NCBI GenBank assembly: GCA_030867685.1
Contig: JAQOWU010000007.1
Span: 124,001-188,000, forward strand
Source: Wickerhamiella versatilis
Lineage: Eukaryota
Reading direction: 5' to 3'
DNA: 64,000 nt
Numbering within the stretch: position 1 is the first letter of the stretch; every line of letters begins with the position of its first letter. Below are positions 2,316 through 57,950 of the stretch, piece by piece. The notes beneath the pieces were generated by a model. It did no database searches. It was not told the origin of the DNA and saw only the letters and a program-made list of their open reading frames with translations. A program made the translations under genes and the position numbers.

Positions 2316-3533
2316 ATGCCCAATTCAAACCATTCTGCCTCTGCTGTGCCCACTATCGATGAGCTCAATTCCCGCTTTCATCCGATATTTAAAGAAATAG
2401 CTGCCGGTGCAGCGGAACGGGACTTGCGTCGCGTTCTTCCTCGTGAGCAGATTACCAGGCTCAAAGAAGCTGGCTTCACTGCACTAAGAATTCCTCGAGA
2501 ATATGGAGGCCTCAATGCGACGTTTCGCCAAACCTTCGCGCTTCTCATAGACTTGGCAGCAGCTGACTCGAACATTGTTCAGTCATTACGTGCTCACTTT
2601 ACCATTGTTGAAGAGTTTTTAGAGGCGAATGATGTGGATGGTCTGAAGCAAATAGGTCAGGGATTAATATTTGGTAATGCAACGTCAGAAAAGGGTGTTG
2701 GAAATGTCGGACGCTTCCAAACTGCCCTGACTCCAGATCCTGCCAATCCAAATGACTATCTTTTGAATGGGTCAAAATTCTATTCAACAGGAAGTTTATA
2801 TTCTGATGTAATTAAAGTTGCAGCAGACCTTGATGGGGAACGTGCTGCTGCTGAGGTACCAGCGGATGCTAAGGGTGTTAGACAGTATGACGACTGGGAC
2901 GGGTTCGGCCAGAAGCTTACTGGATCTGGTACCACGATATTCGAAAATGTATCTGTAAAAGCTGAAAATGTAAAACTGTCCAAATGGATTCAAGGCGCAC
3001 ATCAGCCATATACCGCATATTTTCAGCTATTTCATCTGGCTGCACTGGCTGGAATTGCACGTGGAATTGCAGATGACGTTGCCGAACGGGTAAAAAATCG
3101 GAAAAGAACTTTCAGCCATGCATCTGCAGACTTGCCTAGAAATGATCCGCTGGTGCAGTCAGTTCTCGGACGCGTATACTCTGCATCGTTTGTAGCAAGA
3201 GCGGCAGTTTTGGATGTGGCAGATACAATTTCAAAAGCATTTGGAAAAGATTCACCTGAATACTGGGCTGATCAGGCGGAACTTCAGTCTGCCCAGGCAC
3301 AGGTAACCCTAATCCCATTGGTGTTATATGCGATCACTGATGCCTTCGAAACCGGCGGAGCATCAATTGTCGCAGAAGAAGCTAATCTAGACCGATACTG
3401 GCGTAATGCCCGGACTGTGGCTGTTCATAATCCCGCTATTTACAAACAGCGGGCAGTTGGAGAGTATTTTCTTACTGGAGACGCGAATACGCTCCCTTTC
3501 ACTTGGGCTGCCGGTGTCAGAACAACAAAATGA
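2316..3533 (+). CDS. Acyl-CoA-dehydrogenase-fold FMNH2-dependent monooxygenase, SfnB/DszC (SoxC)-like, bacterial type
   Basis: Motifs LNGSKFYSTGS, DDWDGFGQKLTGSGT and LDRYWRNART.AVHNP are typical of DszC/SfnB. Single uninterrupted 405-aa ORF. Confidence 0.85.
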   Translation: MPNSNHSASAVPTIDELNSRFHPIFKEIAAGAAERDLRRVLPREQITRLKEAGFTALRIPREYGGLNATFRQTFALLIDLAAADSNIVQSLRAHFTIVEEFLEANDVDGLKQIGQGLIFGNATSEKGVGNVGRFQTALTPDPANPNDYLLNGSKFYSTGSLYSDVIKVAADLDGERAAAEVPADAKGVRQYDDWDGFGQKLTGSGTTIFENVSVKAENVKLSKWIQGAHQPYTAYFQLFHLAALAGIARGIADDVAERVKNRKRTFSHASADLPRNDPLVQSVLGRVYSASFVARAAVLDVADTISKAFGKDSPEYWADQAELQSAQAQVTLIPLVLYAITDAFETGGASIVAEEANLDRYWRNARTVAVHNPAIYKQRAVGEYFLTGDANTLPFTWAAGVRTTK

Positions 3534-4387: not shown

Positions 4388-5737
4388 CTATGTATGGGGC
4401 TGAGTCAAATTAACTTTTCCATTACCCCATGGCAGATCCGTGTTGTTGTGACTTAGCAGTTGCTGAGCTGGTGTTTTTCCAATCAATTCTTCCAAGTTCG
4501 GGGAGAAGATAGTCATATCTGCATATTTTCCAGATTCACCGCAAGTTCCTTGTGGAACATTCCCGTCGAAAACATCTTTGACAAAGATCATGGCACCCGG
4601 GGCCCCAACCAACATTCCTATAAGATGTTCAGGGAAGTAAACATCAGCCCATTGAATATTTGCTCCAGCGTCACACTGCTGTTGCACGTATAACTTGTCT
4701 GGCCCATAGGGGACTATTTCATCAGACACTGCATGATACACATAGCGGGGCATCTTAGGCACGGATACACCCACTGTTGATACATTCGAAAGTAGCGATT
4801 CATAACCGTAAATCTTTTGGACCAATGGGATGTCTAGCAGATATTCAGAGGTATGCTCGGTGAAGTTTGTGAAAAGGTGCGAGAGCAAGGATTGTAAAAG
4901 ACACTGATTCGGCTCTAATGCTTGGTTAATAGCTTGGCGAAGGTAATCATCGCAAATCTGATCTCTGGTCTTATTGTCGATGTCATAAACCTCCAGAAAA
5001 GCTGCAATAGTTGGTGGGATAAATCCGGCGAAAAAGCCAGCGTTGAGACTATCATATGTAGTTTTGAAATCCACGGGAATTCCTCCATATGCAGCACCGA
5101 TAACATTTAAATCACTGCCGTATGACTCCAGTAAGTTCAACATCCACGCAGTGGCATGGCCACCTCCGCTATACCCCGCAAATACCGTGGAAACATTAGA
5201 TGGCAAGCCTAATTCAGAAATTGCAGCCCTGACGCCATCAATGCCGGCACGTCCTTCTTCAAAGCCCGCATAAAAGGTATTGCGGCCTCCTTCGTGGTCA
5301 GGAGCAACAATGTAATAACCTTGTGCTAACGCCCAATTAAACCAAGGGGGAACATCCCAGTTAGATGTTAGTGCATTCGGGGAAATCAGTGAGTTTGCAA
5401 TCGAAAAGCTGGGAGCACAATTAGCGCCAGAAGAATCCTCCCATATTTGGAAAGATAGCAATTTAGGTTCGCTGCTTGGCCACCAAGGCTCAATAACAGT
5501 CGCTACACTGTGTGATGGCTCATTCTTTGTGTTATTCGTCCGGTAAAGGACCTGCGAGACATGTGATTTTTCTACCAGAAATTCGAGGGGTTCTATAGAT
5601 CGCTTTCGAATAATTTCACCCTCCCCATACGCACTTAGATTCGAAGGCGGGTTGTAGAAGCTGTCATCACTTGGTGCTGCCGTACCGACGAGTGACGCTG
5701 ATACCGCTGCGAATAGACAGAATAAGTTAACAAGCAT
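4388..5737 (-). CDS. Secreted lipase, CAL-A/LIP family (same family as the sophorolipid lactone esterase)
   Basis: Signal peptide, EDSSGANCAPS, PDHEG, nucleophile GYSGG and YHAVSDEIVP. Confidence 0.9.
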   Translation of the reverse strand: MLVNLFCLFAAVSASLVGTAAPSDDSFYNPPSNLSAYGEGEIIRKRSIEPLEFLVEKSHVSQVLYRTNNTKNEPSHSVATVIEPWWPSSEPKLLSFQIWEDSSGANCAPSFSIANSLISPNALTSNWDVPPWFNWALAQGYYIVAPDHEGGRNTFYAGFEEGRAGIDGVRAAISELGLPSNVSTVFAGYSGGGHATAWMLNLLESYGSDLNVIGAAYGGIPVDFKTTYDSLNAGFFAGFIPPTIAAFLEVYDIDNKTRDQICDDYLRQAINQALEPNQCLLQSLLSHLFTNFTEHTSEYLLDIPLVQKIYGYESLLSNVSTVGVSVPKMPRYVYHAVSDEIVPYGPDKLYVQQQCDAGANIQWADVYFPEHLIGMLVGAPGAMIFVKDVFDGNVPQGTCGESGKYADMTIFSPNLEELIGKTPAQQLLSHNNTDLPWGNGKVNLTQPHT

Positions 5738-7062: not shown

Positions 7063-8295
7063 CTACTCCCTCAAAAGCGGCCCTATCTTCGAAGGCTCCC
7101 CTACCTGTACCTTCACTGGGGCGGGAAGCTCAGCCTGATTCCAGTGTACAGTAGCATAGCGAAGCCAATGGGCATACGTTCTTGGCACGTCATCCGAGCC
7201 TTCGTGATCCCTCCACAGCGAGCCAAGCGTATCTTTGAACACTCTCAGTATCAGACCATGAGCCAATTTGAACCCGAAGCTTTTTTTAAGGCATGTTTCA
7301 ACAATCTCGCGAGCAAATCGCTGCTCAGAATTCTCAGCTTCGTCTTGGTTGGGGAGGGAAAGAGACATCAATTCAAATGCACGCCGACCGTTCCACTCGG
7401 TGAACTCGTTGATGAGCTGCGAACCCACCATAAACTCAATACCATACAGGTGGTCTGCCATGTACTGCGGACCGTTCCAGCCATCTTCTTCATCCACAAG
7501 ACCCATAACTGCAGACATTACCTGGCCCTGGATGATATAGTCCGTCAAGAGCTTTCTCACCTCCTCTGGACCAATGATTTCTCCTGTTTTCTCGTCTTTA
7601 ATAGTATAAGAACCTTCCATAAGTGGAACGCCTGCCAGTAACGGCGAGCAATGCATTCCCTTTGTGTTCGTCCTACCTCCATCTGCGGCCCACAGCTGAA
7701 GAAAAAGTTTATGACATCGCACTAAGAATGGATTATTTGGGCGGGAGCCAAGAAAATAGTTGGTAAGTGAGCGTCCGTAGACACCACCATCGTGATAGCT
7801 CAAAAGCTCGAAGGATGAACGGGGGTTTCCTACCGTCTCGTTCCATAGGCGGTCCAAATCACCGATCTGAAGGAGGCCAACATCCGCGTATACTCCTCCG
7901 TATTGTAGCAGCAGTGGTAGTCGGACCAGATCTGATGTGTGTTGAGCTGGATAGTCGCCGTCAATAGACCCATCGGCAAACGCGCTGGGAAAGAGCTGGG
8001 TATCCAAGACATCAAGGAAGCGGTCAATATTTAACGAAGATCCAGGAACGCGATTCAAGATCCTTACCGTCCAGCCATTCCGTGAAAGGCGCCGGTGATA
8101 GGCCCGTACGTTGCGTTTTGCATACGCGCGCATAGATTCGTAGCCTGACTGCCAAAAGAACCACACAGTTTTCTCTCCTGAAACAGGAACGGGATGAAGA
8201 AGATCATAGTCCACTTCAGAATCGGACCGGAGGTCAAGAAGGTGAGGAGGAATGGCGTAAAGTCCCTCGGGGATGGCATAAGCTTCTTCGCTCAT
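7063..8295 (-). CDS. Capsule-polysaccharide-synthesis-like glycosyltransferase (GT32/Caps_synth-like)
   Basis: VWFFWQSG, HTSDLVRLPLLLQYGGVYAD and NYFLGSRPNNPF motifs; 410 aa, no signal peptide. Confidence 0.75.
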   Translation of the reverse strand: MSEEAYAIPEGLYAIPPHLLDLRSDSEVDYDLLHPVPVSGEKTVWFFWQSGYESMRAYAKRNVRAYHRRLSRNGWTVRILNRVPGSSLNIDRFLDVLDTQLFPSAFADGSIDGDYPAQHTSDLVRLPLLLQYGGVYADVGLLQIGDLDRLWNETVGNPRSSFELLSYHDGGVYGRSLTNYFLGSRPNNPFLVRCHKLFLQLWAADGGRTNTKGMHCSPLLAGVPLMEGSYTIKDEKTGEIIGPEEVRKLLTDYIIQGQVMSAVMGLVDEEDGWNGPQYMADHLYGIEFMVGSQLINEFTEWNGRRAFELMSLSLPNQDEAENSEQRFAREIVETCLKKSFGFKLAHGLILRVFKDTLGSLWRDHEGSDDVPRTYAHWLRYATVHWNQAELPAPVKVQVGEPSKIGPLLRE

Positions 8296-10006: not shown

Positions 10007-11236
10007 TTAAGTCAAGTAATAGCAGTATTCCTCAGCAGTTCCGTACGACTCATATGTGCAAAAGAGTAAGTACAAGAGGCTAATAATTCCTATTGGCGTC
10101 ACAGGCGCGTCTACGAGGGCACGACCAATAGTCGCCACAACCGGCGCAACCAGAACTAGTGAGATACCAGATCCAGCGATTATCGTGTTCACCGCTGGCA
10201 AGCTTATACCGCCTGCCAAGGCTAAGGTTCCCACGACGGAGGCAACCGCTGCAGAAGAACCAGCCACACCGAGACCAGTAATAGCAGTAACGGAGGTAGC
10301 AGCGGCCCCAGCTAAACCTAGTGGAATTGATCCAATCAAGCCAGCGACTACCGATAAGCCCGCGAGGGTCACTGCAGCTGCCACACTTGCGCTAGCTCCC
10401 GTCGCAATCACTGCTCCCACTAAACCAGCAACGCTAGTATCAGTCGCGATTTTGCCTGTCACAGCAATTCCAGCAGTTAGTGCAGTGGCCAGGGTACAGC
10501 CCGCAACAGAGAGAGCGGCGAGGATAGCCTGAGCCGCTACAAGGGCTGTTGTAGCTTCTGGCCCAGACGCCCCTATAGCAGTAACCGCAGCTACCGCATC
10601 CCCTATGACAGCGCCGGTAGCTATTTGCAAAACAGCTGTGACTCCTATCTTGGCTGCCGTGCCTGGTGGAATTCCTACCGCAGCGGCAGCCGCAGCAGCG
10701 CCCGCGGCAGCTACATCAGCTCCTTTTTCTCCCAGATCACCAGCTATCTTCAATTCCGAAGCCGTGCTGATTGCAGCACTGGCACCAATGGCTGCAGCTG
10801 GGACCTTGGGGACACCCTCATCGACAAGCGCATCCGCAGCTTTCGCAGCAGCATCACGGATAGCATCAAGGCTGTTACCGCCCTTCTCTTGCTCCAAAAC
10901 ACCTACCACAATACTACTAGCGTTACGTGCGGCAGATTCAGCTTCCGACTTTTTCAAACCGAACACAATCGCCACATGTACCGCCGTGTCATACGCGTCT
11001 TCTTCAGCGGCACTGTCTCCAGTCGCAGTTGGGTATGGGGGGATAGTACCGTAACTAGCAGTGACGCTGGGAAACTTCGGTGTTGCAAGTTGCTGCAATG
11101 TGGGCTTCGAACTGAAGTATAACGTTTGACTGCTCAACGGCACATCAGTCTGAGTCGTCGTAGCTACAGCAGCCGCTCTAATACAGGCCGTAAAGGCCAC
11201 GACTAAAACAGCGAGAAATCTCAGGCAAGATCCCAT
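10007..11236 (-). CDS. Secreted or membrane-associated Ala/Gly/Val-rich protein of unknown function
   Basis: 409-aa ORF with signal peptide, Thr/Pro-rich segment, amphipathic segment, then about 200 aa nearly uncharged. A decayed paralog nearby supports that it is coding. Confidence 0.7.
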   Translation of the reverse strand: MGSCLRFLAVLVVAFTACIRAAAVATTTQTDVPLSSQTLYFSSKPTLQQLATPKFPSVTASYGTIPPYPTATGDSAAEEDAYDTAVHVAIVFGLKKSEAESAARNASSIVVGVLEQEKGGNSLDAIRDAAAKAADALVDEGVPKVPAAAIGASAAISTASELKIAGDLGEKGADVAAAGAAAAAAAVGIPPGTAAKIGVTAVLQIATGAVIGDAVAAVTAIGASGPEATTALVAAQAILAALSVAGCTLATALTAGIAVTGKIATDTSVAGLVGAVIATGASASVAAAVTLAGLSVVAGLIGSIPLGLAGAAATSVTAITGLGVAGSSAAVASVVGTLALAGGISLPAVNTIIAGSGISLVLVAPVVATIGRALVDAPVTPIGIISLLYLLFCTYESYGTAEEYCYYLT

Positions 11237-12620: not shown

Positions 12621-13987
12621 ATAGATTCTGTCTGTAAGATGAATTTCTTCCAAAATATGCCGATTAATCCAATGGAGTGAAGGATTGAGAGAAGTGTGGT
12701 TCTCTACCCTATTGAAGGACCGCTGATATGTCTTAAATAGCACTCTCGGAATATTACCGAAGTCATTCTCTCCGGGGTTAGGGTATACAGAAGAGGTTTT
12801 TCCACGGTCAACACTTTAAATTTACCGGTTTTATTGTTAATTTATGTTATTTAATATGCCAAAGAAGCAGCTGAGTGCATTAGGCATATGAAAATGCTGC
12901 AAAAGATCTCCGTAAAGGGGTTCAATCAGTTGTCAATGTGGAGATTTATCATCCTTTGTTACTAATTTTTCAATTATTATCGCAGTACTACATATGTTAG
13001 AGATAAATATAAATATTCCATAAGGGCGGCTGAGATATTACCAAATAATTGCAGTGCTGATTTGGAAAATGTCCGCACGAGGTTATGAACGAAGAATCGC
13101 ATCCCTTCATGTCTAACTCTCATTACCCCAAACAGAATCACCTTAATGGTTCGTATGCTATGCTACGCACAGGGCCAGGCTGGATGGCCTCATTGGATCC
13201 CAAGTTTAGGCCGCTGATTCTGAGGATCCATAATGTGAGAGATATCTAACGTACGAACCTTTGTTTCCGAGTGAATCGTTTCTCTATCATTTCATCAGAT
13301 TTGCTTGCTAACGCTTACTTACATTGGCCCCATAAGATCCTCTAGCGTGATACTGAGTCTCTAAAATTCAAAAATCACTCAGCTCGATAATCTTGCATAG
13401 CTGTCGACAGAAAGTGAGTTCCTGCTGCATTTGCGTCCGAGCTGTACAGCGAGGCAGTGCTCTGTGGATGTAGGGCGGCACCCCGGTCTCCGCATGCTGC
13501 ATGTGCATGACATGCCGGTAACGCTATGACGCTCTGCTTGCCCTGTTATATGTCAAGTTGCAAAACTTGATGCAACGTAGCCTATAATATATTATTCTAT
13601 CTCACTCCGACCGAAATTTTATTCTACTAGTTATTGATCTTGTATCGATCTAACTCGACGAGCATCATATGCAGCCGTGGGGAAATCACATGAAAACAAT
13701 CTTCATGATTTCGTAAACATTTTTTACTTGACCGAGATTTATCGCTACGAGACTTTAGCAGTCATTTAATCCATGAACAGAATAGGGTAAATGGTTGGTT
13801 ACATTCTAAATTTCGTGAATAAATAAAGTTTGGCACTACGAATACCTGAAAGGACCTATATATGTATATGCACGATTATGTACGCATCGTACATGAAATT
13901 CCAACAAATATAAGCTTATGCGATCAGATCCAAAAATTCCCATTCTCGACAGCTGTAGGGAGCACATCTGGTAAAGTACGGAAAGGA

Positions 13988-16900
13988 ATGGTTAACGTTT
14001 GCCAAACCCTACTTACAGTCCTCTTCTCTGCAGGAGCTGTAGTGGGAACGGATTCCAGTTCGTTCCAGGATAGGTCGGCTCCCCTGCAACATCGGAGTGC
14101 CAATTCGTGTCCAAGTTCCTCGATATATCCACAGTGTCCACATTACAATTTTGGTTTCCATGCTTCGCAAGCTAACATGCCAAATGCGTCGATTTCAGTT
14201 ACAGATGCTACACTCGTGAGCGGTAGCACGTACAATGTAACTATTTCGTTCCAAGCTGAAGAAAATATGGACATTTCGGCGTTGGATGAACTGAAGATCA
14301 TAGGGCTCCAGTCGTCCTCAGAGACCACAGACGTTTTGTACTCTGTGAATGAAAAGAAGAAGTTCATCGAAAGCCCCAAAAAATGGGATGCCACAGTGCA
14401 GGTTAATGCGAATGTCAAAGGGAACACGGCGTGCATGCCAAGTTTTCAGATTCAATATGACTGGTGCTCACTCAGCGCCAGCTCCGCGGCTAGTGAATGT
14501 AATTCATGGAAATACGCGAAGTCATACGATTATATTACCGGCTGCAATAACGTGGATAACAACGGTAACTCTCAAACTGATGCATCCACCTTTTGCTGGC
14601 CCGTTAATTGCGAAGATGAGGCATCATCGACCACGTCAGTGGCGACTGAATCCTCAAGCACTTCTATATTCGTGCCGGGAACGACTGCCACACGTAGTGC
14701 GCATAACGTTCGAAGTAGCGCATTGACCACGACCACGGCCATTCCAACTACAACTATTTCATTCACTAGTCCGGCAACACATAGTATTCCTTTGCCAACG
14801 GCTTCCTCAAAATGCCAATGTGACAATGAAGATGTTGTGGAGGACATCGTCGATGCCCTTGGTAAGGCTGTGGATGAATCGTTCACCGTTCTCTCTGCGG
14901 GACTGACTCCATGGAACCTTCCTAAAAAAATCTCTTCTATCCAGAGTCTTTATAAGGATGTCCAGAGTCAGGCGAGTGACATAAGCTGTATCAGCTATAG
15001 TTCGCAAGCCCAACTATTCAAGATTCTTGACCAGGCGCTTGAGATAGTCCATGAGCTTCTTGAGGGAGTCGAATCTTTTGGCCTTGTTGAACTTGTTGAA
15101 CAAATAGCACCAGGCCTTCGATTGATCAACGAGGGACTCTCTAGTGTGATAGTGAAGTTTGGCGGAGGACTTTCTCTCAACCCATGTTGTGTAATCTGGG
15201 AAGAGGTTAACTGGTCTTCGGACTATGTTAACCAGGTGAATGGTATTGTTAATAAAGTTAACATCTTGGCACCCATCAAGTTGCCACATATTTCCGGTTT
15301 CGATCTCGGTGTGGGAGTTTCTGACTGCTCGTTGTCCAAATCTAGTGGAGCTACCGTAGTATCGTCGAAGACATTCAGCTCCAAGTTGTCTAGTGCGTCA
15401 TCCAAGGATTCTAGCTCGAAGATTGCTACTGCTAGTGTTACTCCTACAACAACGATCCCCTTCAGTAGTCCCGCCACACATAGTGTTCCGTTGCCAACAG
15501 CTTCTTCAAGTTGTCAATGTGATAATGAGGATGTTGTGGAGGATATTATTGACGCCCTTGGTAAGGCTGTGGATGAATCATTCACCGTTCTCTCTGCAGG
15601 ACTGACTCCATGGAACCTTCCTAAACAAATCTCTTCTATCCAGAGTCTTTATAAGGATGTCCAGAGTCAGGCGAGTGATATAAGCTGTATCAGCTATAGT
15701 TCGCAAGCCCGACTATTCAAGATTCTTGACCAGGCGCTTGAGATGGTCCATGAGCTTCTTGAGGGAGTCGAATCTTTTGGCCTTGTTGAACTTGTTGAAC
15801 AAATAGCACCAGGCCTTCGATTGATCAACGAGGGAATCTCTAGTGTGATAGTGAAGTTTGGCGGAGGACTTTCTCTTAACCCATGTTGTGTAATCTGGGA
15901 AGAGGTCAACTGGTCTGCAGACTATGTTAACCAGGTGAATGGTATTGTTGACAACGTCAACGTCTTGGCACCTATTAAGTTGCCACATATTTCTGGTTTC
16001 GATCTCAGTGTGGGAGCTTCTGACTGCTCGTTATCCAAATCTAGTGGAGCTACTGTCGCATCTTCAAAGACGTCTAGCTCGAAGATTGCTACTGCTACTG
16101 TTACTCCTACAACAACTATCCCAATCTCTAGTCCGTCAACACACAGTATTCCGTTGCCAACGGCTTCCTCAAAATGCCAATGTGACAATGAAGATGTTGT
16201 GGATAACATCATAGATGTTCTTGGTAAGGCTGTGGATGAATCGTTCACCGTTCTATCTGCAGGTCTGACTCCATGGAACCTGCCAAAACAAATCTCTTCT
16301 ATCCAGAGTCTTTATAAGGATGTCCAGAGTCAGGCGAGTGATATAAGCTGTATCAGCTATAGTTCGCAAGCCCAACTATTCAAGATTCTTGACCAGGCGC
16401 TTGAGATAGTCCATGAGCTTCTTGAGGGAGTCGAATCTTTTGGCCTTGTTGAACTTGTTGAGCAAATAGCACCAGGCCTTCGATTGATTAACGAGGGAAT
16501 CTCTAGTGTGATAGTGAAGTTTGGCGGAGGACTTTCTCTCAACCCATGTTGTGTAATCTGGGAAGAGGTCAACTGGTCTGCAGACTATGTTAACCAGGTC
16601 AACGAGATTATTGACAACGTCAACGTCTTGGCACCTATCAAGTTGCCACATATTTCTGGTTTTGATCTCAGTGTGGGAGTTTCTGACTGCTCGTTGTCGA
16701 AATCTAATGGAGCTACTGTGGCATCTTCAAAGACATCTAGCTCGAAGATTGCTACGGCTAGTGTTACTCCTACAACAACTATCCCAATCTCTAGTCCGGC
16801 CACACACAGTATTCCGTTGCCAACAGCCTCGTCAAGTTGTCAATGTGACAATGAAGATGTTGTGGAAGACATGATAAATGCTCTTGGTAAGGCTGTGGAT

Positions 16901-19900
16901 GAATCGTTCACGGTTCTTTCAACGGGTCTGACACCTTGGAATGTTTTCAAGCAAGTTTCGTCTATCCAAAGCCTTTATAAGGACGTTCAGGATCAGGCAA
17001 GTGATATTAGCTGTATCAGCTATAGTTCGCAAGCCCAACTATTCAAGATTCTTGACCAGGCGCTTGAGATAGTCCATGAGCTTCTTGAGGGAGTCGAATC
17101 TTTCGGTCTTGTTGAACTTGTTGAGCAGGTAGCACCAGGCCTTCGATTGATCAACGAGGGAATCTCTAGTGTGATAGTGAAGTTTGGCGGAGGACTTTCT
17201 CTCAATCCGTGTTGTGTAATCTGGGAGGAGGTCAACTGGTCTGCGGACTATGTTAACCAGGTGAATGGTATTGTTGACAACATCAACGTTTTGGCACCTA
17301 TCAAGTTGCCACATATTTCCGGTTTTGATCTCAGTGTGGGAGTTTCTGACTGCTCGTTATCCAAATCTAGTGGAGCTACTGTCGCATCTTCAAAGACGTC
17401 TAGCTCGAAGATTGCTACTGCTACTGTTACTCCTACAACAGCTATCCCAATCTCTAGTCCGTCAACACATAGTATTCCGTTGCCAACTGCTTCTTCTAGT
17501 TGTCAATGTGACAATGAAGATGTTGTTCAGGAGATTATTGACGCCCTTGGTAAGGCTGTGGATGAATCGTTCACCGTTCTATCTGCAGGACTGACTCCAT
17601 GGAACCTGCCAAAACAAATCTCTTCTATCCAGAGTCTTTATAAGGATGTCCAGAGTCAGGCGAGTGATATAAGCTGTATCAGCTATAGTTCGCAAGCCCA
17701 ACTATTCAAGATTCTTGACCAGGCGCTTGAGATAGTCCATGAGCTTCTTGAGGGAGTCGAATCTTTCGGTCTTGTTGAACTTGTTGAGCAGGTAGCACCA
17801 GGCCTTCGATTGATCAACGAGGGAATCTCTAGTGTGATAGTGAAGTTTGGTGGAGGCCTTTCTCTTAACCCATGCTGTGTAATCTGGGAAGAGGTCAACT
17901 GGTCTGCGGACTATGTTAACCAGGTGAATGGTATTGTTGACAACGTCAACGTCTTGGCACCTATCAAGTTGCCACATATTTCTGGTTTCGATCTCAGTGT
18001 GGGAGTTTCTGACTGCTCGTTGTCGAAATCTAGTGGAGCTACCGTCGCATCGTCCAAGACGTCTAGCTCGAAGATTGCTACGGCTAGTGTTACTCCTACA
18101 ACAACTATCCCAATCTCTAGTCCGGCCACACACAGTGTTCCGTTGCCAACAGCCTCGTCAAGTTGTCAATGTGACAATGAAGATGTTGTGGAAGACATGA
18201 TAAGTGCTCTTGGTAAGGCTGTGGATGAATCTTTCACTGTTCTCTCTGCAGGTCTGACTCCATGGAACCTGCCAAAACAAATCTCTTCTATCCAGAGTCT
18301 TTATAAGGATGTCCAGAGTCAGGCGAGTGATATAAGCTGTATCAGCTATAGTTCGCAAGCCCAACTATTCAAGATTCTTGACCAGGCGCTTGAGATAGTC
18401 CATGAGCTTCTTGAGGGAGTCGAATCTTTCGGTCTTGTTGAACTTGTTGAGCAGGTAGCACCAGGCCTTCGATTGATCAACGAGGGAATCTCTAGTGTGA
18501 TAGTGAAGTTTGGTGGAGGACTTTCTCTCAACCCATGCTGTGTAATCTGGGAAGAGGTCAACTGGTCTTCGGACTATGTTAACCAGGTGAATGGTATTGT
18601 TGACAACATCAACGTTTTGGCACCTATTAACTTGCCACATATTTCCGGTTTCGATCTCAGTGTGGGAGTTTCTGACTGCTCGTTGTCCAAATCTAGTTTG
18701 GCTAGCACTGCGACGTCCAGGACATTTATCTCCAAGGCGACTACAGCGTCATCTAAGAAGTCTACTTCGAAGATTGCTACTGCTAGTGTTACGCCTACAA
18801 CAACGATACCCTTCAGTAGTCCCGCCACACATAGTATTCCTTTGCCAACAGCTTCTTCAAGTTGTCAATGTGACAATGAGGATGTTGTTCAGGATATTAT
18901 TGACGCCCTTGGTAAGGCCGTGGATGAATCATTCACTGTTCTCTCTGCAGGTCTGACTCCATGGAACCTGCCAAAACAAGTCTCTTCTATCCAGAGTCTA
19001 TACAAGGATGTCCAGAGTCAGGCGGGCGATATAAGCTGTATCAGCTATAGTTCGCAAGCCAAACTCTTCAAGATCCTTGACAAGGCGCTCGAGATAAACC
19101 ATGAGCTCCTGGAGGGAATTGGGTCTCTTGGTATTGTTGAACTTGTTGAGCAGGTAGCACCAGGCCTTCGCTTGATCAACGAGGGAATTTCTAGTGTGAT
19201 GGTGAAGTTTGGTGGAGGACTTTCTCTCAACCCATGCTGTGTAATCTGGGAAGAGGTCAACTGGTCTGCGGACTATGTTAACCAGGTGAACGATATTATT
19301 GACAATCTCAATGTGCTAGCGCCTATTAAGTTGCCTCATATTTCTGGTTTCGATCTCAGTGTGGGAGTGTCTGACTGTTCCTCGTCGAGATCTAGTGGAG
19401 CTATGATATCGACGTCCAAGACATCTAGCTCGAAATTGGCTTCAGTGTCGTCCAGGGCTTCTCGTAGCACGTTTTCCACGGCGTCATCTAAGAAGTCCAC
19501 TTCGAAAATTGGTACTGCTTCTGTCACTCCGACAACAACTATCCCAATCTCTAGTCCGGCAACACATAGTATTCCGTTGCCAACTGCTTCTTCTAGTTGT
19601 CAATGTGACAATGAAGATGTTGTTCAGGAGATTATTGACGCCCTTGGTAAGGCCGTGGATGAATCATTCACTGTTCTCTCTGCAGGTCTGACTCCATGGA
19701 ACCTGCCAAAACAAATCTCATCTATTCAGGGTCTATACAAGGATGTCCAGAGCCAGGCGAGCGATATAAGCTGTATTAGCTATAGTTCGCAAGCCAAACT
19801 CTTCAAGATTCTTGACCAGGCACTCGAGATAAACCATGAGCTCCTGGAGGGAATTGGGTCTCTTGGTATTGTTGAACTTGTTGAGCAGGTAGCACCAGGC

Positions 19901-21622
19901 CTTCGATTGATCAACGAGGGAATCTCTAGTGTGATAGTGAAGTTTGGTGGAGGACTTTCTCTTAACCCATGCTGTGTAATCTGGGAAGAGGTCAACTGGT
20001 CTGCGGACTATGTTAACCAGGTAAACGATATTATTGACAAGATTAACGTCTTGGCACCTATTAAGTTGCCGCATATTTCTGGTTTTGTTCTCAGTGTAGG
20101 TGTGTCTGACTGTTCGAGTTCTTCATCGACTAGGACTGTCTCAAGTATTGGCACGTATTCTATCTCTGGAAGTGCTAGGTCGAGTTCCAGGAAACCGTCT
20201 ACATCTCTGACTTCTCGCCAATCTATACTCCCCTCTAGTGAGACCAGCATACGTTCCTCGGTGACATCTAGAAGCACGAGTACAGCTAGTATTTCGCGAA
20301 GTACGACTGCTCGGCAAAGTATATCATCTGTCTCGACACCAACTGGGACCTCTTCGAGTCAAAGCTCAGGGGGAGTATTGCGTTCTAGCTCGCAAGGCAA
20401 ATCATCATCAATACATAGCAAGTCATTCTCAAGTAGTGGCAAGTCACATGTTAGCTCGAGTACCATTTCTTCGGCGCCCTCCTTCAGTACTTCAAGCGCA
20501 CCGAAGTCAAGTCTGTCTTCAAGTGGTTCTAGCAAGTCACATGTTAGCTCGAGCACCATTTCTTCGGCGCCCTCCTTTAGTACTTCAAGCGCACCGAAGT
20601 CAAGTCTGTCTTCAAGTGGTTCTAGCAAGTCACATGTTAGCTCGAGCACCATTTCTTCGGTGCCCTCCTTTAGTACTTCGAGCGCACCAAAGCCAAGTCT
20701 GTCTTCACGGGTTTCTAGCTCATCAGGCGTGCACTGGAGTAATTCTAGCTCAATTGCGACAACTTCCACCTCTCATGTGCCATCTCCAGCTTCTAGTGGT
20801 TGCTCCTGCACCCTTGTTGGGACCCAAACTCCCGATGATGATTGCAGCTCTGATATTTCTCAGTCAGTGTTTGACGATTTGACTAATGCAAACGAGGAGA
20901 TTCAGCATCTGATTGCGTCCGGGTTGAGTCCTGACGACTTTACCAAGGTGTTATCCAGTATTTCTCATGTTATCACAGAGAGCGAGTCCTCTCTCAGCTC
21001 TGGCGGTTGTATTAACTCTGGTGATGGCCGTAGTATGATCTCACATTTGGAAACCCTCATTGGGTCTCTTGCCGAGGCCACTGCCCAAGAAAGTTCGGAA
21101 GACCTATTTGGCCAATGTCCTAGTTGCTTGAGCAGTTTTGGAAATGTTAGCAAGTCGATATCTGAACTCCTTAGGGAACTCGATGGCAAGCTGAAATCTA
21201 ATCCGTGCTCTGTTGATTGCGGTGGAGTATCTACCCTGAATAATTACGTCAGTACTTTGAATTCTTTCATTAGTTCATTGAATTCGAAGTATGGTACGAA
21301 CATCGCGAAGATTTCAAGTATCTCGGCTTGTGGTTCTGGTCAAAGATCGTGTTCAAAGAGTACTTGGACAACCACGATTCCTGTTCCTTGCACACAAACC
21401 TCTCTTCTCACTGGAACGGTCTATACCACTGGTAAACCAGAGGCAGCTGTCAGGCTGATGCAGGGGTCCAATGCGTTACGTGCTCGGGCCGTTCCTACAG
21501 CTGCAATTTCTAAGAGTGAATCTGAGAATTCAGGTGCTGTAGCTCAATCAGACTCTGGTGGCATCGCTAAGCCTATGGGGGTGTTCGTGATTACTGGCGT
21601 TCTTGTTGCGGCCCTTGTTTAA
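13988..21622 (+). CDS. Giant Flo11-type GPI-anchored adhesin with tandem globular repeat domains
   Basis: ATG at 13988 precedes a signal peptide (the ORF is open from 13862). Flo11A-like domain at 14135-14611 (LKIIG, MPSFQIQYDW, TGCNN.DNNGNSQTD..FCW..NC), Ser/Thr stalk, and hydrophobic C-terminal GPI signal. Confidence 0.88.
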   Translation: MVNVCQTLLTVLFSAGAVVGTDSSSFQDRSAPLQHRSANSCPSSSIYPQCPHYNFGFHASQANMPNASISVTDATLVSGSTYNVTISFQAEENMDISALDELKIIGLQSSSETTDVLYSVNEKKKFIESPKKWDATVQVNANVKGNTACMPSFQIQYDWCSLSASSAASECNSWKYAKSYDYITGCNNVDNNGNSQTDASTFCWPVNCEDEASSTTSVATESSSTSIFVPGTTATRSAHNVRSSALTTTTAIPTTTISFTSPATHSIPLPTASSKCQCDNEDVVEDIVDALGKAVDESFTVLSAGLTPWNLPKKISSIQSLYKDVQSQASDISCISYSSQAQLFKILDQALEIVHELLEGVESFGLVELVEQIAPGLRLINEGLSSVIVKFGGGLSLNPCCVIWEEVNWSSDYVNQVNGIVNKVNILAPIKLPHISGFDLGVGVSDCSLSKSSGATVVSSKTFSSKLSSASSKDSSSKIATASVTPTTTIPFSSPATHSVPLPTASSSCQCDNEDVVEDIIDALGKAVDESFTVLSAGLTPWNLPKQISSIQSLYKDVQSQASDISCISYSSQARLFKILDQALEMVHELLEGVESFGLVELVEQIAPGLRLINEGISSVIVKFGGGLSLNPCCVIWEEVNWSADYVNQVNGIVDNVNVLAPIKLPHISGFDLSVGASDCSLSKSSGATVASSKTSSSKIATATVTPTTTIPISSPSTHSIPLPTASSKCQCDNEDVVDNIIDVLGKAVDESFTVLSAGLTPWNLPKQISSIQSLYKDVQSQASDISCISYSSQAQLFKILDQALEIVHELLEGVESFGLVELVEQIAPGLRLINEGISSVIVKFGGGLSLNPCCVIWEEVNWSADYVNQVNEIIDNVNVLAPIKLPHISGFDLSVGVSDCSLSKSNGATVASSKTSSSKIATASVTPTTTIPISSPATHSIPLPTASSSCQCDNEDVVEDMINALGKAVDESFTVLSTGLTPWNVFKQVSSIQSLYKDVQDQASDISCISYSSQAQLFKILDQALEIVHELLEGVESFGLVELVEQVAPGLRLINEGISSVIVKFGGGLSLNPCCVIWEEVNWSADYVNQVNGIVDNINVLAPIKLPHISGFDLSVGVSDCSLSKSSGATVASSKTSSSKIATATVTPTTAIPISSPSTHSIPLPTASSSCQCDNEDVVQEIIDALGKAVDESFTVLSAGLTPWNLPKQISSIQSLYKDVQSQASDISCISYSSQAQLFKILDQALEIVHELLEGVESFGLVELVEQVAPGLRLINEGISSVIVKFGGGLSLNPCCVIWEEVNWSADYVNQVNGIVDNVNVLAPIKLPHISGFDLSVGVSDCSLSKSSGATVASSKTSSSKIATASVTPTTTIPISSPATHSVPLPTASSSCQCDNEDVVEDMISALGKAVDESFTVLSAGLTPWNLPKQISSIQSLYKDVQSQASDISCISYSSQAQLFKILDQALEIVHELLEGVESFGLVELVEQVAPGLRLINEGISSVIVKFGGGLSLNPCCVIWEEVNWSSDYVNQVNGIVDNINVLAPINLPHISGFDLSVGVSDCSLSKSSLASTATSRTFISKATTASSKKSTSKIATASVTPTTTIPFSSPATHSIPLPTASSSCQCDNEDVVQDIIDALGKAVDESFTVLSAGLTPWNLPKQVSSIQSLYKDVQSQAGDISCISYSSQAKLFKILDKALEINHELLEGIGSLGIVELVEQVAPGLRLINEGISSVMVKFGGGLSLNPCCVIWEEVNWSADYVNQVNDIIDNLNVLAPIKLPHISGFDLSVGVSDCSSSRSSGAMISTSKTSSSKLASVSSRASRSTFSTASSKKSTSKIGTASVTPTTTIPISSPATHSIPLPTASSSCQCDNEDVVQEIIDALGKAVDESFTVLSAGLTPWNLPKQISSIQGLYKDVQSQASDISCISYSSQAKLFKILDQALEINHELLEGIGSLGIVELVEQVAPGLRLINEGISSVIVKFGGGLSLNPCCVIWEEVNWSADYVNQVNDIIDKINVLAPIKLPHISGFVLSVGVSDCSSSSSTRTVSSIGTYSISGSARSSSRKPSTSLTSRQSILPSSETSIRSSVTSRSTSTASISRSTTARQSISSVSTPTGTSSSQSSGGVLRSSSQGKSSSIHSKSFSSSGKSHVSSSTISSAPSFSTSSAPKSSLSSSGSSKSHVSSSTISSAPSFSTSSAPKSSLSSSGSSKSHVSSSTISSVPSFSTSSAPKPSLSSRVSSSSGVHWSNSSSIATTSTSHVPSPASSGCSCTLVGTQTPDDDCSSDISQSVFDDLTNANEEIQHLIASGLSPDDFTKVLSSISHVITESESSLSSGGCINSGDGRSMISHLETLIGSLAEATAQESSEDLFGQCPSCLSSFGNVSKSISELLRELDGKLKSNPCSVDCGGVSTLNNYVSTLNSFISSLNSKYGTNIAKISSISACGSGQRSCSKSTWTTTIPVPCTQTSLLTGTVYTTGKPEAAVRLMQGSNALRARAVPTAAISKSESENSGAVAQSDSGGIAKPMGVFVITGVLVAALV
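14720..20115 (+). repeat. Eight near-identical in-frame tandem repeats (periods 699, 663, 663, 663, 663, 699, 735 bp)
   Basis: CQCDNEDVV recurs near 14813, 15512, 16175, 16838, 17501, 18164, 18863 and 19598. The antisense ORFs in the track repeat with the same periods. Confidence 0.95.
20441..20710 (+). repeat. About three copies of a 93-bp (31-aa) Ser-rich repeat
   Basis: aagtcacatgttagctcgag at 20441, 20534 and 20627, encoding KSHVSSSTISSAPSFSTSSAPKSSLSSSGSS. Confidence 0.92.
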
Positions 21623-25796: not shown

Positions 25797-26354
25797 ATGC
25801 AATTCACCACTCTTTCCATCCTTGCTTCTTTCGTTCTAGCTGCCCCTTCAAACTTCGATAACACCGTCGAAGACTGTTTCGACCAGAGTGACTATGACGC
25901 CAGCTCCAATCCTAACATGGCCGGCCTCCACAACGCCATCACCAACTCGAAGCAGGTCGTTGACACTCTGGCAGGACAAATCAAGTCAGGGGATGGTCAT
26001 GCAGTTGCCAGCTCGCTCAATGCCTTGATTACAGGAACTGACTCCCAGATTGACAATGTCCTGGGCATGCTCACGGACTCCAAGTTGTTAACATACGCCT
26101 CCCTCGGTGTCAACAAGGATATTGGTAACTTCCTTCTTGGCGACTTCTTCCAGTCCGTGACCAACGGTGTCGAGGTTCTGATCGGTAACATTGGTGGTGG
26201 TGCCATAGACTTGATCACCGACGGTGGGGTCAAAGACCTTTCAGAAGCCATTGGCAAGCTTAACGATATGGCATCCAAGGATTACCATGTTAGTGACAAC
26301 AAGGTTAATGCACTGACCAACGCTAACACCCAGCTCATGCAGCTCAAGCATTAG
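25797..26354 (+). CDS. Small secreted protein, family A (unknown function)
   Basis: Signal peptide, strong C-ending codon bias; paralogous to 26671-27189. Confidence 0.85.
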   Translation: MQFTTLSILASFVLAAPSNFDNTVEDCFDQSDYDASSNPNMAGLHNAITNSKQVVDTLAGQIKSGDGHAVASSLNALITGTDSQIDNVLGMLTDSKLLTYASLGVNKDIGNFLLGDFFQSVTNGVEVLIGNIGGGAIDLITDGGVKDLSEAIGKLNDMASKDYHVSDNKVNALTNANTQLMQLKH

Positions 26355-26670: not shown

Positions 26671-27189
26671 TTACTTTGATTTTGGCAATGTGTTCTGGAT
26701 TTGCTTGTTGAGATCCTGCAACCTTGAAGTGTCCACGTTACTCTTGGAGGATAGCTCCGAAAGACGCGAATAATCTCCGGTTATACGTCCAACCATCTCG
26801 GCATCCATTCTGTCAGCTGCCCCACCCACCATGTTGGAAAGAAAAACTTCAGCACCGTTCGTCACGGACTGCACGAAAGGTCCAAGCAGAACATTTCCAA
26901 CGGCTTCACTCAGTCCTCCGGTGAGAGGTGCAAGTGCCTTTGATGTGGTAGCGATAGCATTGTCGATCTGGGAGTCGGCACCGGTTATGTAGGCAGTCAT
27001 GCGGTCAGCGTTGGCATGAATATCTCCATTGCCCCTAAGCTGGTTGTTGAGGGTGTCTTGAACTTGCTGGTGGTTTATCATGCCATTTTGAGATCCAGTA
27101 AGATCATTGTAATGATTGTGGCTGTTGCCCTGAGGCGTTTCCGCGGAAACAAGAGCAAAAAGAGCGAGAGAGAGAGTAGAGGTGTACAT
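26671..27189 (-). CDS. Small secreted protein, family A (convergent paralog)
   Basis: Signal peptide; shares ITGxDSQIDN and GNxLLGxFxQSVTNGxEV...NxxGGAxD with 25797-26354. Confidence 0.85.
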   Translation of the reverse strand: MYTSTLSLALFALVSAETPQGNSHNHYNDLTGSQNGMINHQQVQDTLNNQLRGNGDIHANADRMTAYITGADSQIDNAIATTSKALAPLTGGLSEAVGNVLLGPFVQSVTNGAEVFLSNMVGGAADRMDAEMVGRITGDYSRLSELSSKSNVDTSRLQDLNKQIQNTLPKSK

Positions 27190-27809: not shown

Positions 27810-29504
27810 ATGTGTATCTCTTGCCAGAAACTGGTGACCAACGCATGGCGCCGGAGCTGGAATGGGGAGGAGGGTAAACTGTGTTTTAACTGTAGCAAGC
27901 GATACGAAGGCCATAAAGTTTACTGTAAGAATTGCAACTTCGTACCTTATGCTGCCGATGTTATGAAAGGTTTGGCTTGTACAAAGTGTACACCGAAGAC
28001 CACGTGCGTTTCCTGCGAGGTCACAGAATCGCCACAGTGGCTCCCCAGCTGGGATCCTGACCAGAAGCTATGCCAAGCTTGTGGCACACGATATCAAAAA
28101 CATAAGAAATACTGTAGCGAGTGCCGGTTTGTCCCATACTACAGACAGACGCAATGCAAATGTGCGAATCCAGCAGCATGCATTTCCTGCATGAGGTCTT
28201 GTTCAGCAGACTGGGAAAGCTGGAGCAGCACTGAGGGAAAGCTATGCGGCATATGTGCTGCACGGTTTGGTCTCCACAAATCGCACTGCACGGGATGTGG
28301 TTTCATCCCGCCAACAGGTAAAAAAGTAATTACCAAAAAAGAATATAGGAAGCAAAACGGGGAGATCGTATCGTGTCCTTCCTGCTTCTCCACTACTTCC
28401 CCTTGTGTTTCCTGCAACACAATCCGGTCCATCAGCTGGCACAAGAGCTCGATAGGTAGGGGTAGAGTGTGTAATTGGTGTCACCTACGGCACGAGGAAC
28501 ATGGGAGCTTCTGTCAAGATTGTGGGTACATCCCACTAGCCGAAGAAGTAACTAATGATTGTCCACAATATGAGTGCACTGGAGCTATACAGAAGAGCCC
28601 ACCCAGCCAGCCCACAAAAAGATGCATGTCCTGCCACCAAGTACCCTTGGGATGGGTGGCTAGTTGGGATAACGCGTTAGGTCAATTGTGTGCACAGTGC
28701 GGCGATCGTTATAAGCACGTTAAAATGTATTGCGATGTGCCATATTGCCACCTCGTTCCGTTTCAGCACCAGATTGAAAAGGCAGGAAAAAAGGGGTTAT
28801 TTACTTGTCTCCAATGCGGACACGGAATGCGAAAAAATGATGCTCCGACCCCAGAAAGAAGAGATGATGATAAAGGTGTGGCCCAGGACCCGCCAAGCAT
28901 TGAAAATGCAACCCTCACCCTCTCGGATGGTGAACTTCAACCAGGCCCTAGACGCTCAAGAGGTAGAAAAGCTGGACCTTCGGGACCCTGTATCGCATGT
29001 GGCACTACAGAGACCGTTAAATGGCGCCCAAGCTGGGATAGTGAACAAGGCGCGCTTTGCAATGCCTGCGGCAAACGTCACATGAGAAATTCTGCGCACT
29101 GCACATTATGTGGCTTCATACCGAACAAGAAAGAGTGGGAAAAAATGCAAATTATGGTCAAAGAAGGAGAGCAAGGGGACCAACTCTTTCTGTGCCCTAC
29201 CTGTAGTCGTCAAACCGGTGGCGATCAATATAGCGTTGTTTGGACACCGCCTCCTGATAAAGGTATCCCGCGCATCTGCTTTTCATGTGGAGAAAACAAC
29301 ACCCTCACATGGCACCAAAGCTGGGAACCGGGTCAGATGCTATGCAATTCCTGTGGCATTCGTTGGAAGAACATGGGCATGCACTGCGACTGTGGTTACG
29401 TTCCATTTAAGTCGCAGTTGAGTAAAGTTTCATCTAAGGATGGTAGTCAAAACATCCAATGTAAAAAATGCGAAAAAATGATGACCGTCCATGTGCCGAA
29501 TTAG
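27810..29504 (+). CDS. Multi-zinc-finger protein with seven tandem Ash1-like GATA modules
   Basis: Seven repeats of CxSC-x7-W-xx-SW-x4-6-LCxxCxxR followed by CxxC-xxP...CxxC. The frame is open back to 27636 and encodes a further partial module, so the 5' end is uncertain. Confidence 0.8.
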   Translation: MCISCQKLVTNAWRRSWNGEEGKLCFNCSKRYEGHKVYCKNCNFVPYAADVMKGLACTKCTPKTTCVSCEVTESPQWLPSWDPDQKLCQACGTRYQKHKKYCSECRFVPYYRQTQCKCANPAACISCMRSCSADWESWSSTEGKLCGICAARFGLHKSHCTGCGFIPPTGKKVITKKEYRKQNGEIVSCPSCFSTTSPCVSCNTIRSISWHKSSIGRGRVCNWCHLRHEEHGSFCQDCGYIPLAEEVTNDCPQYECTGAIQKSPPSQPTKRCMSCHQVPLGWVASWDNALGQLCAQCGDRYKHVKMYCDVPYCHLVPFQHQIEKAGKKGLFTCLQCGHGMRKNDAPTPERRDDDKGVAQDPPSIENATLTLSDGELQPGPRRSRGRKAGPSGPCIACGTTETVKWRPSWDSEQGALCNACGKRHMRNSAHCTLCGFIPNKKEWEKMQIMVKEGEQGDQLFLCPTCSRQTGGDQYSVVWTPPPDKGIPRICFSCGENNTLTWHQSWEPGQMLCNSCGIRWKNMGMHCDCGYVPFKSQLSKVSSKDGSQNIQCKKCEKMMTVHVPN

Positions 29505-32951: not shown

Positions 32952-33590
32952 ATGCTGACCGGAAAAATAGTTCCTGCTGTCCTCGCCTTCGCGGCTTGTG
33001 CTTCTTTCCCTGTGGACTACAATAAACGCGGTTTAGCTGATTGCCTCAATCCACAACATGCCATCCAACTGGCCCAGACTCTCAAAGGCGACGTGCCACA
33101 GATAGCAGGCAATGTCACTGATCTTTCCTCTAAGCTGGGTTCGTTGACGACGAAGCTCGAAGGTGTCACCTCGGGTGATGTTTCTCAGCTCCTCTCTCCA
33201 TCTGTGCTGAATTCTGTGGAAGGAGTTGCCAAGGATATTACGGGTTTGGGGGAGATCGTGGTTGATCTCAATGACAATATTGAGTGGTCCTGCATTGGAG
33301 GAGATTTGTTGCAGAACATTGTGGATCAATTCGATTCTGTTGCCAAAGAACTCAACAGTTATGCCGAGAACGTCGAAAGCATTGTCAATGATTTGTCCGA
33401 CTCTAATCCAGTACAGGGTGCATTCGATCTTCTCAAGGATCTTTATCAACCCAACCAGGCGCTTCTCGGTATCCTCAAGAAAGCCCAAGGTGCGGTTCCA
33501 GGCATTGGCGGCGTCCTTGCTAATGTTACGGGTAGGGTTGAGGATTGCAGTACGAAGATTCACGATCTATTGGAAAAAATACCTCTCTAA
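32952..33590 (+). CDS. Small secreted helical protein, family B, copy 1
   Basis: Signal peptide, propeptide ending in KR (Kex2-type site), amphipathic helices and 3 Cys in the mature part. Confidence 0.85.
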   Translation: MLTGKIVPAVLAFAACASFPVDYNKRGLADCLNPQHAIQLAQTLKGDVPQIAGNVTDLSSKLGSLTTKLEGVTSGDVSQLLSPSVLNSVEGVAKDITGLGEIVVDLNDNIEWSCIGGDLLQNIVDQFDSVAKELNSYAENVESIVNDLSDSNPVQGAFDLLKDLYQPNQALLGILKKAQGAVPGIGGVLANVTGRVEDCSTKIHDLLEKIPL

Positions 33591-57659: not shown

Positions 57660-57950
57660 AGGCTTGTTGATCAAATGGCTATCGAATGGTGAGTTGTGTG
57701 TGATACACAACACTAAGCAGACATGGGCGACGATCACCTGAGCATGAGCTCCGACTGTCTGGTTGGAGCACGCTAAATTGCAATTATGTACCTATGAATT
57801 TCATCTAATTATGAAACTACTAGCTTAGGTTTGATTGCCTGCCCGAAAATAATTAAAACGTTTTTTCTGCCATAGTATCTGAGCCCAGCCCTGGATCAAT
57901 GAATTAATTACCTAGCCAGAATAACTAGGTCCAATTACTGTATGATGCGT

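Follow-up and report, generated by a model that had tools for sequence, protein, structure and literature searches.

What kind of surface protein results when the stalk of a Flo11-type adhesin is built from folded domains, and what would such domains do there? This question is raised by a gene of the yeast Wickerhamiella versatilis, located in a 64-kb stretch of DNA that was analysed as a whole (the window), and described in an earlier note as a Flo11 adhesin with an odd stalk.

Architecture of the gene and reality of its array

The gene is a single uninterrupted open reading frame of 2544 aa at 13988-21622 on the plus strand, and no N is present in the whole window. An in-frame ATG lies upstream at 13862. 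It is unlikely to be the start codon: the hydrophobic leader sets in only at 13988, and T13863 is a C in two of the four sequencing runs that were compared (X15 and X20). The gene has the following parts:

13988..21622 (+): whole gene, with signal peptide, Flo11 head, eight A-type bundles, Ser/Thr region, one B-type bundle, tail and GPI-type signal
13988..14047 (+): probable signal peptide, aa 1-20, from hydropathy, its end placed by eye
14132..14584 (+): Flo11 adhesin domain, aa 49-199 (Pfam PF10182)
14612..14812 (+): Ser/Thr linker, the end of which is a conserved leader of about 20 aa
14813..15328 (+): A-type domain 1, five-helix, six-Cys
15512..16027 (+): A-type domain 2
16175..16690 (+): A-type domain 3
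16838..17353 (+): A-type domain 4, its first third diverged from the other copies
17501..18016 (+): A-type domain 5, the copy used for the structure model
18164..18679 (+): A-type domain 6
18863..19378 (+): A-type domain 7, of a sub-type shared with domain 8
19598..20113 (+): A-type domain 8, of a sub-type shared with domain 7
20114..20797 (+): low-complexity, conventional Ser/Thr region, 228 aa, 57% S+T
20439-20719 (+): 93-bp tandem repeat in three copies, inside the Ser/Thr region
~20834..21352 (+): ninth domain copy, B-type, diverged, with a different Cys set (own-genome search)
21353..21553 (+): conserved tail before the GPI-type signal
21554..21619 (+): GPI-type signal, with candidate omega Ser2523, a short spacer and a 13-residue hydrophobic end (by eye)

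The Flo11 head claimed in the earlier note is borne out by Pfam, where the match covers model positions 1-150 of 151 at E 3.5e-47 (160.7 bits, the curated cut-off being 25). Its count of eight domains of about 170 aa, each with six Cys and separated by Ser/Thr linkers, also holds for the array and had overlooked the ninth, diverged domain. Each A-type unit is exactly 172 aa long and has exactly six Cys (C1, C3, C59, C125, C126 and C172). The linkers between the units measure 49-73 aa with 49-53% Ser/Thr, and the leader of about 20 aa precedes every A-type domain, including those of the stand-alone secreted members of the family considered below. Both termini of the protein are hydrophobic and the omega candidate is a small residue, features that, by eye, are common to three related tails. 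The tail carries the motif L-x-[AR]-R, then A-x-P-T, at 21476, about 25 residues before the omega candidate, and this resembles a Kex2-type cleavage site.

With Flo11-type adhesins such as S. cerevisiae Flo11p, the protein shares a signal peptide (a probable one here), a single N-terminal Flo11 domain, Ser/Thr segments, recombining intragenic repeats and a GPI-type C-terminus. In contrast to the central low-complexity Ser/Thr repeats of those adhesins, 61% of the present protein consists of its nine folded helical domains. The gene fits only the broader class of 'Flo11 domain plus another structural domain' as set out in a survey of Flo11 proteins (PMC8621652); the partner domains listed there are further Flo11 domains, flocculin repeats, collagen and CBM_1, with no helical bundles among them, and the word 'HsbA' is absent from the main text of that survey.

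Is the array real? No two of the eight A-type units are identical, their identity being 87-97% in amino acids and 84.5-95.7% in nucleotides. Over all 28 unit pairs, the NG86 method gave a dN of 0.038 and a dS of 0.341, with a ratio of 0.11 (range 0.07-0.19), and the protein sequence of the repeats is therefore under purifying selection. Copies 4-6 share an identical middle third, which is near-identical in copies 1-3, and copy 4 stands apart in its first third, with 27-42 differences in 171 nt versus 8-24 among the other seven. Such mosaic copies are what gene conversion or unequal exchange would be expected to give. The net charge of the domains, scored in four copies, is -14 to -17. Among 24 listed sequencing runs, with many food fermentation metagenomes and none recorded as RNA, 20 carry the stretch or part of it. 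In the four runs that were compared, the copy-specific linker pieces were recovered with 0-3 differences, and no contig spans the array; eight as copy number holds for the present assembly only because of this. The missing spanning contig is also the point in favour of regarding the array as an artefact of assembly, a reading to which, together with that of a disordered repeat, we give almost no credence. The array is not an artefact because the copy-specific linkers recur in independent runs; in addition, the copies all differ, at no more than 95.7% nucleotide identity and mostly by synonymous changes, and four other genes of the genome hold arrays of two to four copies. The array stands as the real feature that the earlier note had taken it to be.

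A domain family and the composite origin of the gene

Searches of the organism's own genome placed the domain in a family that numbers 32 copies or more, spread over 14 genes: 25 are A-type, six B-type and one is more distant. The number is a lower bound because these searches score the best candidates only. The A-type and B-type profiles align in hhalign at 98.3% (E 2.2e-14, 166 columns). Six of the genes, three in locus L020 and the others in L022, L028 and L038, code for small secreted single-domain proteins, and the remaining eight, the present gene included, for GPI-type proteins. In the proteins of L016, L017, L018, L019 and L021, respectively 2, 4, 3, 1 and 3 A-type copies directly follow the signal peptide; the L023 protein has one B-type domain at each end, and the L024 protein has two B-type domains behind a PA14/GLEYA head. 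The domain is thus found as the N-terminal domain in six GPI-type proteins. For all 14 genes the nearest contig end is no more than about 250 kb away, and in Wickerhamiella and Starmerella yeasts long chromosome-end domains with low expression have been described (PMC13376923).

Other genes of the window deserve mention. Three of them code for lipases, which is weak context for a lipid-related reading, and small secreted helical proteins are encoded at 32952, 35072, 25797 and 26671. In a search of 149 ORFs the latter gave E 0.009-8 against the domain profile, and they were left out of the family count.

Where do the parts of the Flo11-headed gene come from? Its head is 74% identical, both in protein and in DNA, to the head of L029, a conventional Flo11 protein with a plain Ser/Thr stalk. 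In a tree of 31 of the 32 rows of alignment A3 (fragment P0015 was left out), the repeats of the gene cluster with the first L016 domain, with moderate support (90/93). The ninth domain, which shares 23% identity with the A-type (E 2.3e-7 in the own-genome search), and the tail affiliate with L023 and L024: the domain shares 42% identity with the C-terminal domain of the L023 protein and 37% with that of the L024 protein, and the tail is conserved with both and with P0010, being common to four proteins. By these sequence affinities, the gene is shown to be assembled from three families of its genome, one for the Flo11 head, one for the A-type array and one for the B-type module and tail. Judged on the same comparisons, the protein is a member of a wall and secreted family built on the domain, with a Flo11 head grafted on. 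The name of Flo11 adhesin with an odd stalk was right as to the head, which is real, and is better replaced by this framing.

Outside the genome, a HMMER search of 1.84 billion representatives returned 14 proteins, 12 of which were kept as family. P0012 and P0014, repetitive bacterial-looking helical proteins in which only 46-57 profile positions matched, were dropped. Those that were looked up, ten plus two, are ENA or Logan records. In two of them the domain stands behind an enzyme, an aspartic protease in P0007 and a Say1-type esterase in P0008; these two are probably from another species, because their domains sit on long branches and share 43-44% identity with the repeat. Word-index homologue searches returned only P0002, P0011 and P0013. 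None of the pattern matches in JGI metagenome contigs (127 and 595, with limited eukaryote coverage) or in GTDB genomes (85) was confirmed as a relative, so at that sensitivity there is no sign of a bacterial origin. The ESM Atlas gave no usable match for the repeat or for P0011, from which neither absence nor novelty follows. The family looks confined to a few yeasts, in collections whose coverage of eukaryotes is limited.

Predicted fold and likeness to Mp1p and HsbA domains

The domain had gone unrecognised in the earlier note, and Pfam agrees: none of its families fits the repeat. A described adhesin repeat, a possibility that the note had named, is not what Pfam finds here, there being no match to flocculin, flocculin_t3, CFEM or another such repeat for the repeat itself at E ≤ 1 or among the 25 families listed at E ≤ 10, nor for the whole protein at E ≤ 0.1. 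When given the 32-row alignment, AlphaFold2 predicted five helices (7-28, 36-53, 62-89, 92-121 and 129-152) followed by an extended C-terminal arm, with a pLDDT of 92.6 and a pTM of 0.89. A model of this confidence supports the view of the repeat as folded and helical and argues against disorder. A model from the single sequence (pLDDT 63.9) was set aside for the alignment-based one; its best match was a PhoU-like protein (Z 10.8), the bundles listed with it were generic, and none of its top 50 structural matches belonged to the Mp1p family.

In a wide comparison with 48,161 representative PDB chains, the alignment-based model matched best the LBD1 of Mp1p (5ecf; Z 11.5, rmsd 3.1, 143 of 151 aligned) and AfMp4p (5j5l; Z 11.4, rmsd 3.4, 141 of 152 aligned), followed by FANCI (Z 10.8, rmsd 3.5, 148 aligned), Mp1p LBD1-2 (6j6f; Z 10.6, rmsd 3.5, 140 aligned), the fungal five-helix protein g7941 (6zpp; Z 10.5, rmsd 4.0, 146 aligned), a pore designed de novo (Z 10.3) and the laccase small subunit 8paq (Z 10.2). 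All matches have a Z of 10-12, and the comparison tool advises about 13 for helical bundles, a lower Z possibly meaning a common arrangement; unrelated bundles are found within 1 Z of the top, FANCI tying with the top row and the de novo design with rows 3-7. A second structure comparison put 8paq first (Z 11.8, rmsd 3.1, 143 aligned), and nine of its top 10 were secreted fungal bundles at Z 10.5-11.8, seven of these being Mp1p/AfMp4p entries (three distinct domains). Foldseek returned nothing at E ≤ 0.001; its TM-scores were 0.47-0.54 for the Mp1p family and 0.60/0.64, the highest among the matches listed, for 6zpp. The five-helix bundle of about 150 residues in the Mp1p arrangement is matched as a likeness of fold, at a Z below the caution line of about 13. 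The comparison with HsbA and Mp1p-LBD folds suggested in the earlier note was an apt one, since Mp1p-family domains are the top structural matches. Sequence searches of the PDB with A1 and A3 ranked designed coiled coils at the top and gave apolipophorin III an E of about 0.6; these were taken as generic amphipathic helices.

Like the present module, the ligand-binding domains (LBDs) of Talaromyces marneffei Mp1p and Aspergillus fumigatus AfMp4p (5ecf, 5e7x, 5csd, 5fb7, 6j6f, 5j5k and 5j5l) are five-helix domains of about 150 residues, and the alignments with them are near full length (Z 10.5-11.6, rmsd 3.1-3.7). Mp1p and HsbA proteins, like the present family, are described as secreted or wall-located, with single- and tandem-domain forms (PMC5488042, PMC13537970). 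In contrast to Mp1p and AfMp4p, with which it shares 8-11% identity and no HsbA profile match, the module has six conserved Cys and an extended C-terminal arm of 20 residues, and the protein combines eight near-identical copies and a ninth with Ser/Thr linkers and a Flo11 head. Two more of the matches are also small secreted fungal bundles, namely the laccase small subunit of Pleurotus eryngii (8paq), reported to have four helices plus three short ones and to bind an enzyme (PMC10443355), and g7941 of Drechmeria coniospora (6zpp), a five-helix bundle of an effector family reported as broadly conserved (PMC10462633). Their Z to the model is 10.2-11.8 and 10.5, respectively, but both are single-domain proteins and, at 8-11% identity, have no sequence similarity to the module.

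Is there a link to HsbA in the sequence as well? None of the 32 members of A3 reaches the cut-off of the Pfam family HsbA (PF12296, 33.5 bits), the best E being 0.13 for two B-type stand-alone rows. The genome holds six ordinary HsbA matches elsewhere, none of them in the Flo11-headed gene, and the profile of these proteins matches AfMp4p at E 7.7e-12, which makes AfMp4p a relative of HsbA by sequence. Against this profile, which is made of six sequences only, hhalign gave 43.5% with A3, 2.7% with A1 and 2.5% when only A-type rows were used. Among 120 permutations of the helix blocks the native order came 18th, and the forward sequence scored above the reversed one in 26 of the 32 related rows, with low scores. 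With an hhalign score that depends on the alignment and a helix order at rank 18, the sequence link did not prove robust. Large hydrophobics make up 38% and Ala 5% of the domain, versus 27-36% and 6-16% in most of the six local HsbA domains; such a high hydrophobic and low Ala content could mean a filled core without a cavity. As modelled, the domain is shaped like an Mp1p/HsbA bundle and is not a PF12296 member, and common ancestry with the Mp1p/HsbA domains is, in our judgement, rather probable.

What the module may do at the cell surface

All 22 A-type rows, P0013 and the two N-terminal B-type rows have both C1 and C126, and the four C-terminal B-type rows have neither, probably through one loss event; P0055 has C1 and not C126. 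Their co-occurrence suggests a C1-C126 disulfide, and two more pairs are predicted among C3, C59, C125 and C172. Should the helices be arranged up and down like those of Mp1p, the six Cys and both chain ends would lie at one pole, where the disulfides would staple the bundle to the O-glycosylated Ser/Thr string, and the other pole, which bears conserved loops of hydrophobic and aromatic residues, would point outward. The three A-type loops at this putative free pole have 42% large hydrophobics versus 27% at the Cys pole, the value for the B-type being 28%, and a Phe or Trp is found in the helix 1-2 loop of 20 of the 22 A-type rows and of none of the eight B-type rows.

We propose that the array could serve as a multivalent grip on lipids or on hydrophobic interfaces (oil droplets, waxes and the air-liquid surface are examples), acyl chains possibly being held inside the bundle too, and that the Flo11 head would supply cell-cell or surface adhesion. 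Valency can vary because recombination exchanges and homogenises the copies, as seen in the mosaic pattern. The conserved basic site before the anchor may permit shedding, of a form that would end at Arg2500; for Flo11p, Kex2-dependent shedding has been reported at the N-terminus (PMC8617999). To this reading, in which a disulfide-stapled Mp1p/HsbA-like module in many copies grips lipids or hydrophobic surfaces under a grafted Flo11 head, and which builds on the predicted structure, we give an even chance. HsbA and Mp1p domains are described as five helices around a fatty-acid cavity, and in Mucor HsbA the hydrophobic helix 3-4 loop has been proposed from simulation as a surface anchor (PMC13537970). 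Mp1p has two lipid-binding domains and 13 homologues are reported with one (PMC5488042), and the stand-alone and N-terminal occurrence of the present domain parallels these homologues. The protease and esterase fusions resemble the use of an accessory binding module. A wider version of the proposal, which we offer tentatively, is that of a portable module of yeasts for lipids or hydrophobic interfaces, a disulfide-stapled offshoot of the HsbA/Mp1p fold deployed in the way of carbohydrate-binding modules, by itself as a secreted protein, as an appendage of proteases and esterases, and in arrays of varying copy number behind Flo11 and PA14 heads; the present protein would then be a nine-valent, possibly sheddable, lipid-gripping adhesin in which most of the binding falls to the stalk.

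Loops that are conserved, hydrophobic and exposed would fit a protein interface too. The module could accordingly be one for docking, recruiting or stabilising secreted enzymes (lipases, proteases) at the wall or binding a partner on neighbouring cells, with the array as an enzyme scaffold or a multivalent protein-protein adhesin. 8paq, which tops the second structure comparison, is a protein-binding laccase subunit and not a known lipid binder; it forms a heterodimer and is reported to stabilise its enzyme via a hydrophobic helix surface (PMC10443355). Recruitment of cutinase is reported for Aspergillus HsbA (PMC13537970), and the module itself is fused to a protease in P0007 and to an esterase in P0008. 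However, the closest full-length five-helix matches among the 48,161 chains are lipid binders, and we hold docking to be a somewhat doubtful alternative. It is compatible with the lipid grip, because HsbA does both.

Could the domains instead be inert, that is, disulfide-stabilised, protease-resistant beads that lengthen or stiffen the stalk and lift the Flo11 head above the wall? They occupy the usual place of the stalk repeats, the phenotypes of S. cerevisiae Flo11 are reported to be tuned by stalk length (PMC8617999), and the strong negative charge per domain would favour an extended chain. A spacer would make no sense, however, in the six stand-alone secreted proteins, or in the several GPI-type proteins in which the module is the only recognisable head; if both termini leave from one pole, each domain would add little length; and the dN/dS of 0.11, together with the conserved hydrophobic loops, points to a function of the surface. 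We therefore consider this role unlikely. The domains might also act as sinks or decoys at the surface and in the medium, capturing the toxins of competitors or amphiphiles that do harm, such as free fatty acids, glycolipids and antimicrobial peptides. Many copies, bound as well as secreted, would suit a stoichiometric sink. Mp1p is reported to sequester arachidonic acid (PMC13537970, PMC5488042), and a location near contig ends, as in all 14 genes here, is frequent for fast-evolving interaction genes. The combination with Flo11 and PA14/GLEYA adhesin heads, though, points to adhesion; we regard a sink as quite unlikely.

Leaving aside the function, how much of this is new? Tandem folded domains on wall proteins are already known, Mp1p itself with its pair being an example. 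In Candida albicans, Csa1 is a wall protein with several CFEM domains. Csa1 and the adhesins with multiple Flo11 domains (PMC8621652) show the same beads-on-a-string arrangement of Cys-containing folded domains, GPI-anchored, but the present domain differs from theirs in fold and in Cys pattern, and among the families listed there is no CFEM match in any A3 member. In the literature searched, which includes few subscription papers, neither the domain nor a Flo11 head with an array of helical bundles is described. New here are an unnamed domain family, which is probably a remote offshoot of a known fold, and its high-copy architecture.

In the usual view, a fungal adhesin has one head that binds and a glycosylated stalk that is passive. 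Here a folded domain under selection makes up most of the stalk, and this domain has also been shuffled to lectin heads and hydrolases and is secreted on its own. If the preferred reading is true and the domain binds lipids, the family would be a new branch of the HsbA/Mp1p fold and a small, stable module for surface display, and it would provide a concrete mechanism for the attachment of a fermentation yeast to oil or to air-liquid interfaces.

Start codon, alleles and length of the adhesin and its relatives

An in-frame ATG upstream of the adhesin gene (window 13862-13987) would add 42 residues without signal character to the protein. Since this codon reads ACG at 13862 in the sequencing runs X15 and X20, position 13988 is the likelier start. 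In one of the four runs compared, the isolate run X15, a contig (depth 23) lacks 7 bases at window 14110, a loss after which the reading frame would stop at about residue 74, and the X15 strain may carry an inactive allele of the adhesin gene. Two GPI-type family members are shorter in their database versions. The database protein P0002 has 914 aa against 981 aa at its locus (L016:2939-5884), and P0028 has 684 aa against 1313 aa (L023:2766-6707), with the shortfall lying in low-complexity repeats in both cases; either the strains vary in length or the shorter versions are collapsed assemblies.

Other genes of the window

Genes of the window outside the helical proteins
2316-3533 (+), acyl-CoA dehydrogenase-like monooxygenase (Pfam)
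4388-5737 (-), secretory lipase (PF03583)
7063-8295 (-), Caps_synth glycosyltransferase (Pfam)
10007-11236 (-), protein of 409 aa that looks secreted; its long C-terminal half is hydrophobic and rich in Ala, Gly and Val; no Pfam match
27810-29504 (+), protein of 564 aa; numerous Cys pairs, and four segments that score above the Pfam threshold for GATA zinc fingers
40177-41145 (-), class 3 lipase
43653-44492 (+), class 3 lipase
56388-61955 (-), UDP-glycosyltransferase beside an MDR-type ABC transporter (transporter named by sequence)

The monooxygenase and the Caps_synth glycosyltransferase are candidates for horizontal acquisition, and the multi-finger GATA array of the 564-aa protein is unusual. 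The UDP-glycosyltransferase and ABC transporter pair may be reminiscent of Starmerella glycolipid biosurfactant clusters. A lipase-like ORF resembling the window lipases is also found elsewhere in the genome (L031:4101-5096), adjoining the small helical proteins of that locus.

HsbA genes and small secreted helical proteins

The Wickerhamiella versatilis genome holds six ordinary HsbA-family genes (L032-L037), some with GPI-type tails and two of them side by side on contig C8. On the same contig, a short, weak match to the domain-family protein P0013 (4535962-4536123, minus strand; E 0.0075), with an internal stop, is perhaps a decayed member of the helical-domain family.

Small secreted helical proteins
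Cys-containing, without Pfam family:
window 32952-33590 (+)
window 35072-35719 (+)
L031:5891-6616 (-)
L031:7124-7798 (+)
L024:159-794 (-), at the locus of the PA14/GLEYA-headed member
Convergent pair, no Pfam match:
window 25797-26354 (+)
window 26671-27189 (-)

The two proteins of the convergent pair share a similar central motif. The two Cys-containing proteins of the window are 82% identical to each other, and in a search of 149 ORFs the domain profile matched four of the Cys-containing proteins weakly (E 0.009-0.09). Those of the window, L031 and L024 are possibly further remote bundles.
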